Part shown: piece after piece, positions 10,973 through 64,000 of the stretch
How the letters are laid out: each line of letters opens with the position of its first letter
How positions within the stretch are numbered: position 1 is the first letter of the stretch
Assembly (NCBI GenBank): GCA_035221665.1
Contig: CM069144.1
Location: 39,308,001 to 39,372,000 of the forward strand
Source: Okamejei kenojei
Taxonomy: Eukaryota
Reading direction: 5' to 3'
DNA: 64,000 nt
Notes under the pieces: model-generated
Seen by the model: only the letters and a program-made list of their open reading frames with translations
Told to the model about the DNA's origin: nothing
Databases searched by the model: none
Program-made: the position numbers and the translations under genes

Positions 10973-11014
10973 ATGCTGTACCTAGAGAATGCAGCCCAGT
11001 CACAGTACAGTGAG
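10973..11014 (+). CDS. TP63: deltaNp63-specific first coding exon (exon 3'), MLYLENAAQSQYSE
   Basis: ATG in a caaacATG context, 14 codons matching the deltaNp63 N-terminus (human MLYLENNAQTQFSE), then a perfect donor GAG|gtaagt in phase 0. Confidence 0.97.
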
Positions 11015-13599
11015 GTAAGTAGATCAACAAGTATACAAACCTCGCATCCACCGCTTCAGGACCTCTACAGATTGGCTCCTAGTATGATTTATTCGGCAAG
11101 TTATCCTTCATAAGGGCCTCCTCGGAGTAAAGCTTCCAGACTCTGAACTACAATTGAATTAATTACATTTGTGATTTTCTAAATAGACATTTAAATAATT
11201 TAACACCTATCTTAAATTAAATAGATTAAATCACAACTGTCACTTTGAACAGCCAAGTTCAAGATTAGCAACTATTAAGAATGACAACTTTACAGATTGC
11301 TGGAGTTAATTTATTTATTGAAACATCTTTATCAAAACCCTGAGCTAGTTCAGAGAATAGAATGAAAAGTTGCAATAATGTTGTGATTGTAATAGGGCTG
11401 ATGTTCAAAATCTTGACCATCATTTCTAGTCTTTGGATTATGGGTAGTGAAGAACTTGACGTTTCAGTTCTATTAATGTTGGAAACTTCTAGACAACGTC
11501 ATTGGATTGAAGAATTTTGTTTAAATGTTTATGTTTTGTGATGGCAGGTAATGGATTGAAGTACGTACAAAATTATGTGCTGTACAATGGCAGCTGACTT
11601 TTACGAACTGTATTGTCGATAACTCATTGATTCGTACAAACTTTTTCAAAATGTTCATCCAGTGTTTCAAAGTAGTCCAGGTGAATGGGTTGAAAATGTG
11701 CAAATGTCTGTTGCAAGGGAAGTGCGCTGAAAATGACCAGCAAAGAGGGAAATGTGACACTTGAAGGTGTGGGTTAACTTATTAATAATGCAGGAATCTT
11801 AGTCAAATTGTTCTCTCTTGAAAGAGAAGCTGTCTTCTTCAAATGAAACAAAAGTATGCGGTCTCCCCAAATCATGGAGTAGTCCCGGATGCGTTCAGCT
11901 GCTAAAAGACAGCCTCAAAATAACATGTTCAGTTTCCTGGACTGTTTATTTGAAGCTCAAACACTGCTAATTTTCAACATTTTTGGGGGATAAAAGGAAC
12001 TGTTTACATGCCATTTCTGCAAGCATACGACGCTGTTGTTTTTTCACTTGATTCTTTCCTTTCTTGAAGTACACAAGCTGTAGAATAGAATTGTCAAATC
12101 TGTGTTTGGGGAAATCACAGTCGATGGTAATCCAGCAGAAAGTACTTGTCCATCGTCATAACACAGCTATTCACTCAGGGGGGACACAGCTTACTGATGT
12201 GTTACACCCTTCTTAAATGTTTGATGTGTAAAGGTGACAATGAGAATTCACTGAATTCTTTAATCCTGCTTCTGCAAAAGCAAGTAAGGACACAGATACT
12301 GAGAAAATGATGAAGAATCTTTGAGTTAAATTCATTTATGAATCTCTACCTTTTTTTGCAATTTGTGGTTATGTGCATAACTTGATGAAAATTCCAAGTC
12401 ATTGTTGAACAGAATTGCTAAATTATTGAATAATTTGAATTGTGAAGGAAGCCACACCAAAATGGAAAATTTGATATAAAAAATATGAAGTGAATTTTCA
12501 TCTGCAACTTTGTTCTTGAAATTTTGCAAAACTCTTCCATTATTGGAAGAATTAAATATGTAAGGAAAAATTGCCTGCAGGATCTAATACACTCTTCTTC
12601 CGGGCACTTATCAGGAAGGGGTTGCATCGAGGAAGGTTTGTATTGTCATTAGGAAGCTTCTCCAAGTAAGAATTCTGTTCGGAAAGATTTGTAACGAATA
12701 TGAGCAAGGACACACAAGTGTGCTTCAAATCAGTAAGCAATATGAAGGAAATATTATGTAAAAGCACTTAAGATTAATTTCTTCAGCACAGCAGACCTTC
12801 AGGGTTTGGCTCACAAACCAGCTGACTGGGACCACAACTTGTATGCCTCTAATTTCCATGTGCATCCTTAGATATGCAACAGTCTATCTTTGACAAAGCA
12901 CCTAGGCCATATTATATGATTTATTCATTCGTGACTAGACAGATTGTTTTATTTTATGAAACTAATGGCTGCAGGGAGCTGCAACGAGTGAGAGATATTT
13001 CCAAACTGTGGAGACTTTAGGAGAAGCTGCTTCATCAGTTTAAATAATATATCAGTATCTTCAGATGCAAAGCCTGGTCCTGAGATATGTAATAAATATA
13101 GACAAGAGCAAAGATGCCATATAATCACATTGGTGAAATGTTAGTAACACTATTTTACTGGTGCTTTTTAAACACTCTGTGCATTAGGCATGGATCTTCG
13201 CTCAGCCACTGCAAGGAGTTAACTGTGCAGTTGAGGCCTGGATTCCTGATGTGCTCTGGATTTCCAACACATTGGCAATTACAAACTATTTTGATCACCA
13301 GCTGAGAGAGGTTGAGTATTCTACCTAATTGCAGTGTTCAATCAGGCTAAAGAGAACAAAGTTAAACCCTCACCTAGGCTGCATGTTGCTGCTCTTTAAT
13401 GTTGATCAAAGCACTGTCGTAGTCTAGGGAAGTAATTTATGGGGGTTAGTAATTCCCCACCTGTCCAGTGTCTCTGACAGTCCTTATGGGAATGCAGTGC
13501 AAAGGTTATCAGGACTTATGGTAGTTGTGAATCAAGTACTAGGTAAAACCCTGGTCCTTCCATAAAGTATATTTAGCAGGCTAGTTATAGTGATCCTGG

Positions 13600-19779: not shown

Positions 19780-21170
19780 ACACTGTCTATATGGACTTCA
19801 GCAAGGCATTTGATAAGGTTCTGTGTGGTAGACTGCTCTGAAATATTAGATCACATGGGATCAAGGAGAGCTTGAAACATAGAAACATAGAAAATAGGTG
19901 CAGGAGTAGGCCATTCGGCCCTTTGAGCCTGCACCGCCATTCAATATGATCATGGCTGATCTGGAGACTGGATAGAGAATTGGCTTCATTGAAGTATGCC
20001 GAGGGTGATGGTGGAAGATTGTTTTTCAAACTGAAGGCCTATGATTAGTGGTGTGCCTTAGGAATTGGACCCATTGCTGTTTGTTGTTTATCTCAACGAA
20101 TTGGGTGTGAATGTGGAAGGAATGATTGGTAAGTTTGCAGATTACACTAAATTTGGCGGGATTGTAGATAGTGATGATGGTTATCAAAATTACTGCTTGA
20201 TCAGTTAGACAAGTGAGCCGAGGAATGGTTAATGGAGTTTAATGCAGATAAGTGCAAGATGTTGCATTTTTGGAAGTGAGGCCAAGGCAGGACCTTCACA
20301 GTGAATGGCAGGCCCCTGGGGAGTTTTGGAGAGCAGAGAATTTAGAGGTGCAGATACATAGTTCCCTGGAAGTGGCGTCACAGGTAGATACGGTGGTCAA
20401 GAAAGCTTTCAGCACATTGGCCTTCATCAGTCAGAGTATTGAGTATAGGATGTTATGTTACATGTGTAGGAAGGAACTGCAGATGCTGTCTTAAACCGAA
20501 GATAGACACAAAAAAAGTGGTGTAACTCTGCGGGTCACAGCATCTCTGGAGAAAATGAATAGGTGACATTTAGGGTCGAGACCATTCTTCAGACTGTGAA
20601 TGTCAGACTGTGAACTGTTATGTTACGGTTGTACAAGATGTTGGTGAGGCCACATTTGGAGTATTGTGTTCAGTTTTGGTCACCCGGCTATAGGAAGGAT
20701 GTTGTTTAGCTCTAAAGAATGCGGCAAAGGTTTACAAGGATGTTGCAAGGACTTGAGAGCAGAGCTAATAGAAGAGATTGGGAAAACTTTATTCCTTGGG
20801 GCACATGAGCCTAAGGGGTGATGTTTTAGAGGTGTATAAGATCACAAGACGAAGAGACAGGATGAATTATCCAGGCTAGGGGAATCAAGAACCAGAGGAC
20901 TTGGGTTTATGGTAAGAGGGGAAAGAGTTAATGGGAACCTGAAGGACAACTTTTTCACACTGCGGGTGGTGGGTATTTGAAATGAGCTGCCAGAGGAGAT
21001 AGTTGAGGTAACTACTATAACAACATTTAAAAGACATTTGAACAGTATATGAATAGGAATGATTTAGAGGGATATTGGCCAAATGCAGGCAGGTGGGAAT
21101 AATGTATAAGGGGCGTGGTTGGTATGGGAAAGTTGGGCTGAAGGGCCTGTTTCCCTGCTGTATGACTCAA
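19780..21170 (+). mobile_element. Older CR1 RT and 3' end with two nested insertions
   Basis: [48 protein letters not shown]. Interrupted by a minus-strand CR1 tail (about 19874-19960) and a Penelope unit (20462-20615). Confidence 0.85.
20462..20615 (-). mobile_element. Penelope-derived unit with tail and 11-bp TSD, nested in CR1
   Basis: TGTTATGTTAC at 20451-20461 and 20616-20626. Body runs aaggaactgcagatgctg..gggtcgagaccattcttcagact. Confidence 0.8.
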
Positions 21171-30904: not shown

Positions 30905-31470
30905 ATGCTATTGGTGTATTATTATCATGTTTGCATGCAAAGAGAAAATGATCAGAGTGCAGAATATAGTGTTACAACATTATAGCATTACATTTACAGA
31001 GAAAGTGTAGATAAAAAAATAGTGCATTGTTCACAATGAGGTAAATTGGGAGATCAGGACTACACCCTAGCTTATGAGAGAACTGTTCTGTAGTTTTATA
31101 ATAGCGGGGAAGAAGCTGTTGTTGAGTCTGGTGGTGTGTTCTTTCAAACTTTTCTATCTTCTACTCAACAGGAGAGGGTTGAAAATAGGATCACCGAGAT
31201 GAAAATGATCATTGGTTCTGTTGGCTGCTTTCTCGAGGCAGTGTGAAGTATAGATTGGGAGTGGTGGTGGTGTTAGTTTGTGTGGACTGGGCTGTGTCCA
31301 CAACGGCCTGTAATTTCAATTTCTTGCAGCTTTAGGCAGAGCTGTTGCCAAACCAAGCTGTGATGCATCCCTGTAGGATGCTTTCTCGAGTGCATCTGCA
31401 GAAACTGGTAAGTCTTGGAGACATGCCAAACTGTTCTGAGGAAGTAAGGAATTGGTGTGCTTTCCTGTCA
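30905..31470 (-). mobile_element. Old Rex1/Babar-like LINE 3' end
   Basis: Reverse-complement similarity to 640-1225 (gaagaagctgtt, ttggctgctttctcgaggcag, caggatgctttc-like motifs). Confidence 0.7.
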
Positions 31471-33510: not shown

Positions 33511-34574
33511 GTATTAGTGTAAATATTTAATTGCATCTTTTTTATGGTGATCTGTAAATCAAGCATGTAGTAATTGATTGCGGTGGCGAGTTGCCACCTT
33601 GCTGCAAAATTCTGTTTAAGGAATTTTTTTAAAGTAGTTTCTCTGATAGTGCACATGGCCATACAGATTCCCAAGAGACATCCATCGGTTCAACATATTA
33701 TCAACATTTGTCTGCTGTTCAGGTCTTTCTGGTGGATTGTTTCATTACCTGAGGAGTTTCAGAGAGAACTGAACCCTGATATTATCAGCGAACCTCCCAC
33801 TTCTGACTGATGGTGAAAAGATCATTTTTAAAGCTGCTGAAAATGTGGGCCAAGTAGGCTGCTCCAAGCAGCCCAGGATCGTAACAGTGTCCTGGCTAAG
33901 ACAGTTTGACTCCAACAATCACATTTGTCTTCCTCGACGTACAGTGTGACTGTAGCCAATGGAATGATTTCCCTTTGATGCGCATTCACCTCATTAACAC
34001 ACGGACATTACATTTGCTTAAATACAATTTTAATGTCAAGCTCAGTTGTTCTAATCTCACCTCTACGATTTGTTGAGGTAGTTTTCCACCTTGCTGTTAG
34101 TACATCTGATGCTGGCATTCTTGGGGTTTGATCCTGGATGGTAATTATATCGTGTGTAATAGGTCAGGCTATCAGCTCGCAGATGGAATACATTTCTGCA
34201 GCTCCTGACTGCCCACAGCTAGTGACACATTCACTTGAATAAAAGTTTAATTATATTTTCAAACTTGGAAATCTCTGCTCTAATTGGTAGTTATATACCG
34301 AGAAAATGGCGTGCCTTCTTGAGGATGAGAGTCGATATGTTGGTGGGAAAACTCGAGCTAGTGTTAGTAAGGACAGAGGTGATAAAGGGTGGGCAGGGCA
34401 TGGTGAGAATAGATGGACTTCATGTTAAACAGATAGAATGATAGACTTCATGTTAAACAGTGATTTAGATTATTTTCCATGCTGAGGTTGTATTTTCAAC
34501 ATGCACGCCGTCAGAAATAATGGTTGCACTGTTTGAAATAATTTTAAATTCTGTTCTTTTTCTTTGACATTCAG

Positions 34575-34619
34575 TATTCGCCACCGGCTGGACAGCATCT
34601 TTCAACTGACGGGTGGAAG
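34575..34619 (+). CDS. TP63: Candidate alternative cassette exon of TP63 (YSPPAGQHLSTDGWK)
   Basis: Strong pyrimidine tract and CAG acceptor (ttctgttcttttttctttgacattcag), 45 nt with no stop in phase 0, donor AAG|gtgcgt. In frame with exon 3' and exon 4. No transcript evidence. Confidence 0.6.
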
Positions 34620-35364
34620 GTGCGTAAGGGGGTGGGGATAGGTTTTTCCATTGTCTGACTTAGTCATTTGTGTAAAGTGTCAGAAGGTTGATGAATCAGA
34701 ATTGAGAAAAAAAATTAAAAAACGGGATAGATTGGTGCAGGGATGTAATTGAGCTAATGTGTGTGATGCTGTGAGTGTTTGCATGGTTATGCTCCAGGCT
34801 CAGAAATCAACCACTTTACTGAGCACCAATGTTTTGCTCAGCACCACAACCGCTCTAGGAAGGGTGCAGGCCAGTGTGACGAGGACGCTGTAAGGGCAGG
34901 TGAAGCGCAGTGTGAGGAATGAGACCGAGATAAGGTTGTTTGCTCTCTAGCAGAAGATTCCAAGGGGAAATGTAATTGAGCTGTGTTGGTAATGGGGGGC
35001 TTGGATAGGAGGGATCCTGTTTCTTTAGTGGTGATGTCAGTGTCTGGAGGGCATAGCTAGATTAATGAATGGATTAGAAGGAATTAGTGGAAGGATTAAA
35101 GGGGAGTCCGGATAATTCATGTTGCATCCAAAAAGTATGGGTGCTCAAACCCACATTATAATCAGATGGTACTTGATGAATACTTGAAGAGTCATAACCT
35201 ATGAAGTTATGGATCAAGAACTGAAAGTGATCTCCTTTGGCTACAGTAGACATAATGGTGCAATTGGCATTTTGATATACTAGTATAGTATTCACTAGTA
35301 ATATATTTGCTATACTAAGCCTATGAATAGATGTATGCAGTCCCAGTGATATTTAAAATGGCAT

Positions 35365-35532
35365 AGGCACAAAGCACTGGAGTAACTCAACGGGTCAGGC
35401 AGTCTGAAGAAGGGTCTCGACCCGTAACATCACCCATCCTTTTTCCCCAGAGATGCTGCCTGACCCACTGAGTTACTCCAGCACTTTGTGTCATTCTTTA
35501 TTATAAACCAGCATCTGCAGTTCCTTGTTTCT
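35365..35532. mobile_element. Penelope-derived unit with terminal inverted arms and a degenerate 16-bp TSD
   Basis: cacaaagcactggagtaactcaacgggtcaggcag is inverted relative to ctgcctgacccactgagttactccagcactttgtg. Flanks are atatttaaaatggcat (35349) and atatctaaaatgccat (35533). Confidence 0.8.
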
Positions 35533-37379
35533 ATATCTAAAATGCCATTGGATAACCTTGCTAATGTCCATTAAATTGATTAATCAAGTCACCTCAGTAG
35601 TTCAGTTTGTATCCATATTCTTTAGGTTATTTCCCAGAAGAGTCACCTTCTAGTTTAACATACAATATGCAGCTTTTTGGGTGCTGTGGTACATTTGCTG
35701 TAAGGATCTGGCTCACTTAAGGCATGAAGAGTCGATTACTATTATTGCAGCTGCAATTTGAAAATTTACATTTACCAGACGATGATCTCTTGAATAAAGA
35801 CTACTGTTGCAGGGAGGGTCCCGAGTTTTTTAGATGGTTACTGTCGACTTGGATGGAGGTGAATTACTGAGCCAGTAGTTGACCATGCTTGCTGATGTTT
35901 TATATAGTAGTACTACACACCAAATTTGTGCCGGGAGCATTACCTGGAGATGTGTTTAAGAAAGATGTGCAGATGCTGGAAAAACCTGGAGATTTTCTTA
36001 TTTCTCCATTTTGTAAACGGATACATTCTGTAGCTGTAAAATATTTACTAAATCAAATATCCCGTTAATGCAGTAAAGGAGCCGGATTGTCTGAGGAGCC
36101 ATAGGTTCTGGTTTTGTTCTCTGAAGGCAGGTGCATGGTACAAAGGTATTATTTGCACCATTGGGTTGTAAGGGTTGAAGTTAGATGTCTGTTTATTGGT
36201 ATCATTGTTCTTACTGATTAACTGCAGTGATCCTTGTATACCAATGCTATGTGAGGAACTGTATAATCTACAATAATGCATCAAGGCAAATTTTTTTTTC
36301 CTCGGGAGGTTTTATCAAAGTCCTTTAATAGACATCACAGAGAATCATTTAATTGCCTGACTAGGTAAACTGAACCAGTTGTTGTTGATACACATAGGAG
36401 AGCTAAGGGAAGCAACACAATGGACAAGTTTGTATTAAACAGAGTGATAAAACTCTGGGAAAGTAAGGAAAATGTTTTTGATGTAAGCTGTTATTGATAG
36501 GTGTCAAAGGAAAGGCTGGCACAAATCACAGCTGCTCCACGCAGAGACTGTGCCTAATGTGTCTGTCAAACATTTTGCTGTATTATTTATGTGTCATTGT
36601 ACTTTAATAGGTGCCTATCGACCATGATTATGTCACACTTTATCTGCTTGTGAGGTGTGGTGGGCAAAAGTGATAAACTCATTTCAGTGTAGAAAACTCC
36701 AGATGCCAAATTTTCTTTATATGCCCATAAATTGCATAGACTATACAACAGAACAGTACACCACAAGAACAGGCCCTTCAGCCCACATTGTCTGCGCCAA
36801 ATATGATGCCAAGACAATCTGCCTTATCTGCCTGCATGTAATCCATTTGCCTATGATATGAATAAAAGACAGCTTTAAACATGCAGGGAATGCTCAGCAG
36901 TCAGTCAACATCTAAGAAGATGTTGCTGACCATTCATCAAAGTTGATTGGTACTAAGATTCAGGCTAGTTGACCAAATGGCTTTGGATTTTGAACCATGC
37001 ATTTGAAACAGAAACATCTGAGCAACAATTCGATTCTGCCCCATAGGAGTAATCTTTCCTCAGAAAACAGAGCAAACATTTTCAGCATTGTAAACTGCAG
37101 AATGGAAGGTTTGATCAGTGGAGCTGTTTAACTCTTCTTAGAGCAGACGATGAAAATAATTTCTGCTAAGATGCTTCATAATAGTGCTTATAATTGCTTC
37201 ATAATAACTTGTGCTTTGGTGAATGAAATGTTTGAATTTTGAAAACCATATCTTAGGTGGTTAGATTGTGATTTATTTCGCTGATGCTCTTAAAGCACTG
37301 TAAAAAATATATATAAATTCCCTTTCCATAAAATAATGTGGATATCCTGATCAGTCATTAAACAGGATGTGCTGATGTG

Positions 37380-37515
37380 NNNNNNNNNNNNNNNNNNNNN
37401 NNNNNNNNNNNNNNNNNNNNNNNNNNNNNNNNNNNNNNNNNNNNNNNNNNNNNNNNNNNNNNNNNNNNNNNNNNNNNNNNNNNNNNNNNNNNNNNNNNNN
37501 NNNNNNNNNNNNNNN
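37380..37515. other. Assembly gap or masked stretch (136 N) covering the exon 4 branch point and pyrimidine tract
   Basis: The N run ends one base (G37516) before the exon. Confidence 0.98.
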
Positions 37516-37516
37516 G

Positions 37517-37768
37517 CCTCAGTTCACGAACTTGGGGCTCCTCAACAGTATGGAGCAACAGATACCGAACGGATCATCCTCCACCAGCCCCTACAACAAC
37601 GACCACACTCCCAGCATCACAGCACCCTCGCCATATGCTCAGCCCAGCTCCACCTTCGAGGCTCTCTCACCCTCACCAGCCATCCCGTCAAACACAGATT
37701 ATCCAGGCCCACATGGGTTTGATGTGTCATTCCAGCAGTCCAGCACAGCCAAGTCTGCCACGTGGACA
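37517..37768 (+). CDS. TP63: TP63 exon 4 (proline-rich region and start of the DNA-binding domain), 84 codons
   Basis: [84 protein letters not shown], donor ACA|gtaagt. Only the G of the acceptor AG is visible. Confidence 0.97.
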
Positions 37769-55139: not shown

Positions 55140-55547
55140 TGGAGGAACAGCACCTCATATTCCGCTTGGGGAGTCTGCATCCTTTGGGCTTGAACATTGA
55201 ATTTTCTCAATTCTGTTAACCCTTGCTGTCTCCTCCCCTTCCCACCTCTCCCTCAGCCCTCGGGCCCTGGCATTCCCTCTCTCTCTATCTCCCTCCCCCA
55301 CCCTAGTCGCACAAGCTTCTCATTTTCACACCACAAACAGCTTACAATGGCTTGTTCCCTTTATCATCGATACTTTTTTGCATATCTTCCATTCATTGTT
55401 CTTTACCTCTCCACATCACCGTCTATATCTCTCGTTTCCCTGATCCCTGACCAGTCTGAAGAAGGGTCTCGACCCGAAACGTCGCCTATCTCCTTCGCTC
55501 CTTAGATGCTGCTGCACCCGCTGAGTTTCTCCAGCCTTTTGTGTACC
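55140..55547 (+). mobile_element. Young 5'-truncated Penelope-like element; 13-bp TSD
   Basis: Near-identical reverse complement of 39892-40300. CTTTAGTAATAGT at 55127-55139 and 55548-55560. Confidence 0.93.
55456..55483 (+). ncRNA. Minimal type-I hammerhead-ribozyme-like motif, sense to the TP63 pre-mRNA
   Basis: CTGAAGA-a-GGGTC-tc-GACCC-GAAA-CG-TC: core boxes, stem II, and a palindromic ACGT in place of stem III. Stem I is weak (about 2 bp). Confidence 0.65.
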
Positions 55548-63053: not shown

Positions 63054-63240
63054 TATTCTCCAGAGCTGAAGAAGCTGTACTGTCAGATTGCCAAGACTTG
63101 CCCCATCCAGATCAAAGTGATGACGCAGCCACCACAAGGAGCTGTGATCCGAGCCATGCCCGTGTACAAGAAGGCGGAACATGTCACGGAGGTGGTGAAA
63201 CGTTGCCCGAATCATGAGCTCAGCAGGGAGTTCAATGATG
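63054..63240 (+). CDS. TP63: TP63 exon 5 (p53-family DNA-binding domain, including the zinc-binding Cys and His of RCPNH), 187 nt
   Basis: Acceptor ttctcctttcctgcag| then [62 protein letters not shown](G) and donor |gtaatg. Phase 0 to 1, p63-type residues. Confidence 0.98.
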
Positions 63241-64000
63241 GTAATGCCCTGACCGATTCTTTAAATCAGCTTCTGAGAGGTGTTTGGGAATGTTAGGTCA
63301 TTCAGAATGGCACGCACTAGAATGTCTGGAACTTCCAATCACATCCTTTACTTGCACGTCATGTGGAGACCAGACGATGGAGTGCTACTGCTGAAACACA
63401 CCACCTCAAAGGCCAAACGTTGGCAATACTTGCATAGGGACCGCTGTTCATCCAGTAAGTTCCCGTCTCAATAGGTTCAGTCGCACCAAAGCAAATAAGA
63501 CATAGAGTGACTGCTGCTGCTTCAGAACTTGAGGTGGGGCAGAAAATAGTGAAAGGTTTCCAATTCATGATAAATTTTGATGCCATTGACTCCTTACTAT
63601 CAGGTCTGCTCTCCACATGGAGTCACACAAATCATTTTGGGGACATTGAGATTGTGACATTACAGGCTGCACGTACGAGCCCACAGTGTTGCGGATATAA
63701 TCATTGGACACTGAGCAGAAAGTAGTTGATGCTTCGACATTATGTCCACACTAACTCAAGTGCTTACGAAGAGTTTCCAATAGCAAATCAGACTTGACTG
63801 TAGCTGCAGCCAGCGTTTAACCAGTTTGTATAACTACACTGAGGAGAAGTCTTCTGATCCATTGAATGCACGGAGCATGCTGCATGCATGCATTGGAGCC
63901 ACTCCTAAGGCTGTTCTGCCTCTCACCTTAAGCTCTTATTATATCAGGGCAGTTGTAGATTTGATTTTCACAAGCACTGTTTATTGAGGGGAAAATATTA

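Follow-up and report, generated by a model that had tools for sequence, protein, structure and literature searches.

The question raised by this locus was whether a short open stretch in the 26-kb intron between the deltaN-specific first exon (exon 3') and exon 4 of skate tp63, a gene of skin development, is a true cassette exon and, if so, what it adds to the protein. We analyzed a 64,000-nucleotide (nt) stretch of genomic DNA from Okamejei kenojei (the window), to which all coordinates refer and in which all features described lie on the forward strand. The peptides of exons 3', 4, and 5 matched p63 of Leucoraja and Amblyraja except where the translations read through exon boundaries, and the window was therefore assigned to skate tp63. 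The coding part of the deltaN first exon, which begins with MLYLE (MLYLENAAQSQYSE, 10973 to 11014), ends in phase 0 at the donor GAG/GTAAGT. Exon 4 (PQFTNLG...SATWT, 37517 to 37768) is common to the TA and deltaN forms; the end of the intron before it reads N in the window, and its acceptor carries no splice score. Exon 5 (YSPELKKL..., 63054 to 63241) is the first exon to lie wholly within the DNA-binding domain. The window is preceded by the TA exons, the last of which (exon 3), located about 9.5 kb before the window start, also ends in phase 0. The orthologue contains the P53 DNA-binding, tetramerisation, and SAM domains, and the Pfam families P53, P53_tetramer, and SAM_2 were found on P0126, a full-length deltaN form from Logan that includes the insert. 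The same layout, with TA exon 3 or exon 3' joined in phase 0 to exon 4, is given for mammalian TP63 (TA, deltaN, and deltadeltaN forms) in the accessible text of two studies (PMC9091270, PMC5843667). Two more p53-family genes matched p63, at G000:C32:1332262-1424304 and G000:C42:13516274-13519810; judged by identity alone, they are probably tp73 (46 to 86% by exon) and tp53 (52 to 68%), respectively.

The sequence elements listed in the preliminary description were all present. The acceptor region (34515 to 34574) is an AG-free zone with a pyrimidine tract and closes with CAG; 45 stop-free nt follow (34575 to 34619, encoding YSPPAGQHLSTDGWK), then the donor AAG/GTGCGT (34620 to 34625) and, just 3' of it, two G-runs (34628 to 34637). 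Being a multiple of three without a stop and with canonical AG and GT borders, the segment is a symmetric, frame-preserving exon; it is in phase 0 on both sides with either upstream exon (exon 3' or TA exon 3), and the joined product reads as had been predicted. Splice sites were scored with a crude matrix of generic frequencies, which is not MaxEntScan. By this matrix, the cassette ranked first among 1214 in-frame, stop-free intronic AG..GT pairs of 21 to 300 nt and third among all 28177 AG..GT pairs in the intron, and 3 of 1564 intronic GT sites scored at least as high as its donor. The splice signals of the cassette thus exceed chance. The acceptor zone showed no good branch-point consensus, with weak candidates at 34520 and 34541. 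The G-runs are a candidate intronic splicing enhancer, and a TGCATG located 161 nt downstream (34780 to 34785) is a candidate Rbfox site; the former would act as hnRNP H/F sites and the latter through Rbfox. Each of these features arises by chance about 1 time in 10: two G-runs were found in 820 of 10294 intronic 45-nt windows, and TGCATG has 22 intronic copies in the window, with 0.13 expected per 300 nt. The three CpGs that had been put forward as support for the exon are present, but the argument is weak by itself, because 1010 of 26321 intronic 45-nt windows (3.8%, in 38 regions) have at least three. Among the in-frame pseudo-exons of the intron, those at 12615 to 12665 (51 nt) and 31336 to 31407 (72 nt) came next in the crude score. 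About 115 nt upstream of the cassette, two 21-nt copies that are 28 nt apart and 95% alike form a small tandem duplication (34412 to 34460).

Splicing of the cassette was examined in contigs assembled from sequencing runs of related skates, which are not necessarily of the window's species. Sixteen runs matched, none of them recorded as RNA and 10 guessed to be RNA, and five (X1, X3, X5, X6, and X8) were examined; those left out included X11 to X16, which are of unrecorded kind and richest in matching words. The joint between the cassette and exon 4 was present in all four runs that covered the cassette (X1, X3, X5, and X8), each of which had one contig whose fit to the compared region (34400 to 35280) was confined to the cassette. 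Both junctions anticipated in the preliminary description, 11014 to 34575 and 34619 to 37517, were recovered in three of these four runs, from two organisms and two studies. The X5 (3385 nt) and X8 (2157 nt) contigs, from organism B in study P2, covered 34573 to 34619 with exon 3' before and exon 4 after it. The X3 contig, from organism A in study P1, had the same arrangement, with exon 4 represented by only 9 letters, and the X1 contig started inside the cassette and showed the 3' joint only. Because the joint spans 23.5 kb of intron, the contigs are considered to be of transcript origin, although their RNA status is only guessed. In X5 and X8, the cassette-bearing contig accounted for all depth on exon 4, and inclusion was the assembled path; such contigs yield no inclusion percentage. 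Run X6 (study P3) had no cover on the cassette, and its exon 4 contig carried 97 letters before 37516, the identity of which was not displayed; this run was left out of the evidence on inclusion or skipping. The Logan-derived protein P0001 carries the same included product. These results confirm that 34575 to 34619 is a real, spliced, in-frame exon of skate tp63. The skipped form is annotated in models of all three skates (P0129, P0132, and P0136) and is known from these models, not from reads. Elsewhere in the intron, the segment 35400 to 35530 belongs to an abundant short repeat that matches many other places in the window, 55452 to 55544 among them, and it had very deep contig cover in the four runs compared there.

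The contigs also bear on a second GT at 34624 (GTAAGG), which overlaps the used donor and had been suggested to give a 49-nt form. The site is present, whereas all four runs ended the exon at 34619 and none contained the longer form, and the site scored -0.6 compared with 5.4 for the used donor in the crude matrix. If it were used, the frameshifted product would stop inside exon 4 after 98 amino acids (aa), and the cassette could act as a regulatory switch that sends the message to decay; decay would also conceal the 49-nt form from contigs. Even so, the uniform end of the exon and the low score of the alternative site make this explanation most improbable.

The exon had further been described as unannotated and as a feature of the deltaN form, and neither description applies. 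Automated RefSeq predictions already carry YSPPAGQHLSTDGWK in Leucoraja erinacea X1 (XP_055501849.1), Amblyraja radiata X2, X3, and X5 (XP_032887580.1, XP_032887581.1, and XP_032887583.1), and Rhinoraja longicauda X1 (XP_078266711.1). These tumor protein 63 models have the same 15-aa insert at the same junction as the window, with no difference at the protein level, and three of the five (Amblyraja X3 and X5 and Rhinoraja X1) are TA forms. The exon is therefore known at the level of automated annotation; it is ordinary in kind. Overall, the peptide was found in 5 of 9 skate models and in all three skate species, each of which also has a skipping model, and the 15 residues are identical in two families, Arhynchobatidae (Rhinoraja) and Rajidae (Amblyraja).

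The spread of the exon was then assessed among 62 elasmobranch models. The peptide occurred in none of the 20 models from other batoids (Narcine, Pristis, Mobula, Hemitrygon, and Hypanus) and none of the 33 shark models; among all 191 proteins compared, it occurred in six, namely, the five RefSeq skate models and P0001. Two model clusters were seen in part (15 of 20 and 15 of 27 members), and absence here refers to the protein models listed, not to DNA. The peptide recurred in other skates but not in the listed shark, other ray, or amphibian models; the comparison contained no chimaera or gar model, and its sole coelacanth model has an aberrant N terminus. Because the peptide is absent from all 53 listed models of other rays and sharks, the exon is likely of the skate lineage and not ancient. 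Insert-directed searches of protein cluster representatives returned just P0001 and two insert-less fragments, and the search of 50% representatives gave six matches, consisting of human p63 and five unrelated proteins, of which the three inspected were all repeat-rich. A search of openly available full texts turned up no publication on this exon or on a skate p63 isoform, and the literature yielded no date for the Rajidae/Arhynchobatidae split. The available main text of the little skate genome paper does not contain the term p63 (PMC10115646).

Next, we compared the skate insert with p63 forms of other vertebrates. For mammalian TP63, the accessible text of one study (PMC5843667) and of a p53-family isoform review (PMC11551734) covers the choice of promoter, re-initiation at Met26, and splicing at the 3' end but does not mention an exon inserted ahead of exon 4. 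A 36-aa in-frame insert at the same junction is present in Carcharodon carcharias and Cetorhinus maximus (XP_041038631.1 and XP_078420533.1), with skipping models alongside, and it was seen in deltaN models only. This shark insert is Trp/Phe/Lys-rich and identical in the two species (P0151 and P0003 in Carcharodon; P0154 and P0137 in Cetorhinus), with a single difference over the 614 residues of the whole proteins. Unrelated inserts at this junction were also seen in single-species models of Mobula (P0167, 50 aa), Heterodontus (P0149, 19 aa), platypus (P0049, 24 aa), Leptobrachium (P0099, 31 aa), and Camelus ferus (P0015, 28 aa), some of which may be prediction artefacts. The six inserts compared with the skate peptide gave shuffle P values of 0.13 to 0.82. 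The shared junction and phase, together with a loose likeness between STDGWK and STHKGWQK, could point to an older elasmobranch exon that is homologous to the 36-aa shark insert and was lost or left unannotated in other rays and sharks. However, the skate-shark alignment score was matched by 39.5% of 2000 shuffles (P = 0.40), the shark, Mobula, and Heterodontus inserts gave only chance-level tblastn hits in the window, and no listed model outside skates carries the peptide; common descent of the two inserts is accordingly quite unlikely.

The simplest reading of its origin appears to be that the exon arose in the skate lineage out of unique sequence of the intron. The cassette had one match in genome G000, in a search that skips very common words, and it lies within a 2369-nt stretch that is free of repeats by self-comparison. 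A transposon or repeat origin was tested and found no support: a profile of the best look-alike repeat, built from 16 to 30 copies in three rounds, did not match the exon at E ≤ 100. This test used no repeat library and may miss a very old origin. The repeat copy at 20928, chosen after the fact, scored highest among 4236 tiles (32, compared with 30 and 29.5 for the next). A duplication of exon 5 likewise found no support. The cassette and exon 5 both start with CAG/TATTC, and the anchored score ranked 4th of 8587, but the signal was gone after shuffling (P = 0.03 to 0.17 with the first 9 nt and 0.30 to 0.95 without them). Many young exons are transposon-derived and minor forms; the skate exon differs in that no repeat origin was found and in being the assembled path in the runs that cover it. 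Symmetric cassette exons that are confined to one lineage and fall in disordered parts of transcription factors are a known class, with which the skate exon shares its short length, a multiple of three, phase 0 on both sides, a long host intron, and a position in a linker of low structure.

The consequences of inclusion for the protein were examined in both N-terminal contexts. In deltaNp63, the insert adds one Ser-Pro and one Trp, as had been predicted, together with a Leu and the sole Lys that precedes the DNA-binding domain; this terminal Lys may merely follow from the AAG of the donor. Gain of a YxxP motif, which we take to be linked to c-Abl sites, was rejected as a consequence, as inclusion adds YSPP and removes the junction YSEP and the deltaN form keeps three. 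The c-Abl sites on p63 are named as Y55, Y137, and Y308 in the accessible text of one study, which gives no consensus there (PMC3032504). The deltaN form has 14 unique residues in place of the first 69 TA residues (PMC9091270). Its N-terminal region is active in transactivation, and a second start lies 26 residues into the protein (PMC5843667). Inclusion shifts this Met26 to Met41 and separates the 14 unique residues from those of exon 4. In TAp63, the cassette follows the W69-equivalent residue, that is, inside the segment of residues 64 to 119 that can be deleted from human TAp63alpha with the closed, inhibited dimer intact (PMC4876613). The first 39-residue window changed from a net charge of -3 with six W/F/L residues to -2 with eight on inclusion, and no window in the four skate forms passed a published acidic activation-domain rule (39-residue window, net charge ≤ -8, W/F/L ≥ 6). 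According to the available text of one preprint, human p63 does not uniformly meet this rule either, and its N termini are predicted to be disordered (bioRxiv 10.64898/2026.04.19.719484).

To what extent the 15 residues are maintained by selection was estimated from nucleotide changes. Relative to the window, exon 4 carried 5 differences among 253 letters in organism A (runs X1 and X6) and 3 in organism B (runs X5 and X8); the six displayed positions were all synonymous, and one of the five in X1 was not displayed. At the exon 4 synonymous rate, 4.6 to 5.3 changes would be expected in a neutral 45-mer over three lineages, compared with the 0 to 1 seen in the cassette (combined P [≤1 change] = 0.03 to 0.06; neither organism was significant by itself, P = 0.11 and 0.10). 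This rough and borderline test suggests purifying selection on the cassette, and it cannot tell protein constraint from splicing constraint; splicing signals in so short an exon could explain the conservation. Identity of the peptide carries little weight by itself, since only 8 of 563 residues of p63 differ between the skate families. The exon could be nearly neutral, spliced and tolerated in frame within a dispensable linker, with 15 functionless residues whose conservation reflects slow evolution and splicing signals. Such a reading is in keeping with the dispensability of residues 64 to 119 (PMC4876613), the absence of any gain by the activation-domain rule, the borderline constraint, and the occurrence of six other inserts (19 to 50 aa) at the same junction, none significantly similar to that of skates. 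In contrast, inclusion is the assembled path in every run covering the cassette, the exon has 0 to 1 nucleotide changes and keeps its three CpG sites, all 15 residues are identical in two families, and transactivation by deltaN uses the region of the insert (PMC5843667). We regard near neutrality as possible but doubtful.

We favor the reading, at a probability of roughly 0.6, that the cassette is an optional in-frame spacer, born in skates from unique intron sequence, that tunes the disordered N terminus and is not a new domain. The strong donor and the good AG-free, pyrimidine-rich acceptor would define the exon, and the G-runs and TGCATG may help, so that inclusion would be common. In deltaNp63, the added Trp, Leu, Ser-Pro, and Lys would modestly alter cofactor contacts or modification, and in TAp63 the insert, sitting in a linker that the inhibited dimer does not need, is probably tolerated. 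A modest tuning role for this insert, in a region predicted to be disordered, seems somewhat more probable than its absence. A bolder proposal, which we consider rather unlikely, holds that skates have remodelled the N terminus of their chief epithelial p63, with the 15-aa form as a dominant, tissue-regulated deltaNp63 that has a cofactor or modification site of its own, and that the lamniform 36-aa exon arose independently at the same junction. If this were true, the exon 3'/4 junction would be a repeated site of evolutionary tuning in a highly conserved vertebrate developmental regulator.

Repeated exon gain at this junction, in a region that accommodates insertions, is mildly interesting, and the pair of including and skipping forms offers a natural experiment on a short disordered region whose working remains unsettled. 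Work on the evolution of fins, skin, and jaws uses the little skate as a model. For the cloning and probing of skate deltaNp63 and the raising of antibodies against it, it matters that the commonly assembled form is 15 residues longer in the region to which deltaN transactivation is attributed. The general view of p63 function is unchanged unless the two forms differ in activity. A further variation was observed on the exon 4 side of the junction. Carpet-shark models (P0147, Hemiscyllium X2; P0146, Rhincodon X5; P0142 and P0144, Stegostoma) are without the first two residues of exon 4 (PQ), which would fit the use of an acceptor located 6 nt further downstream.
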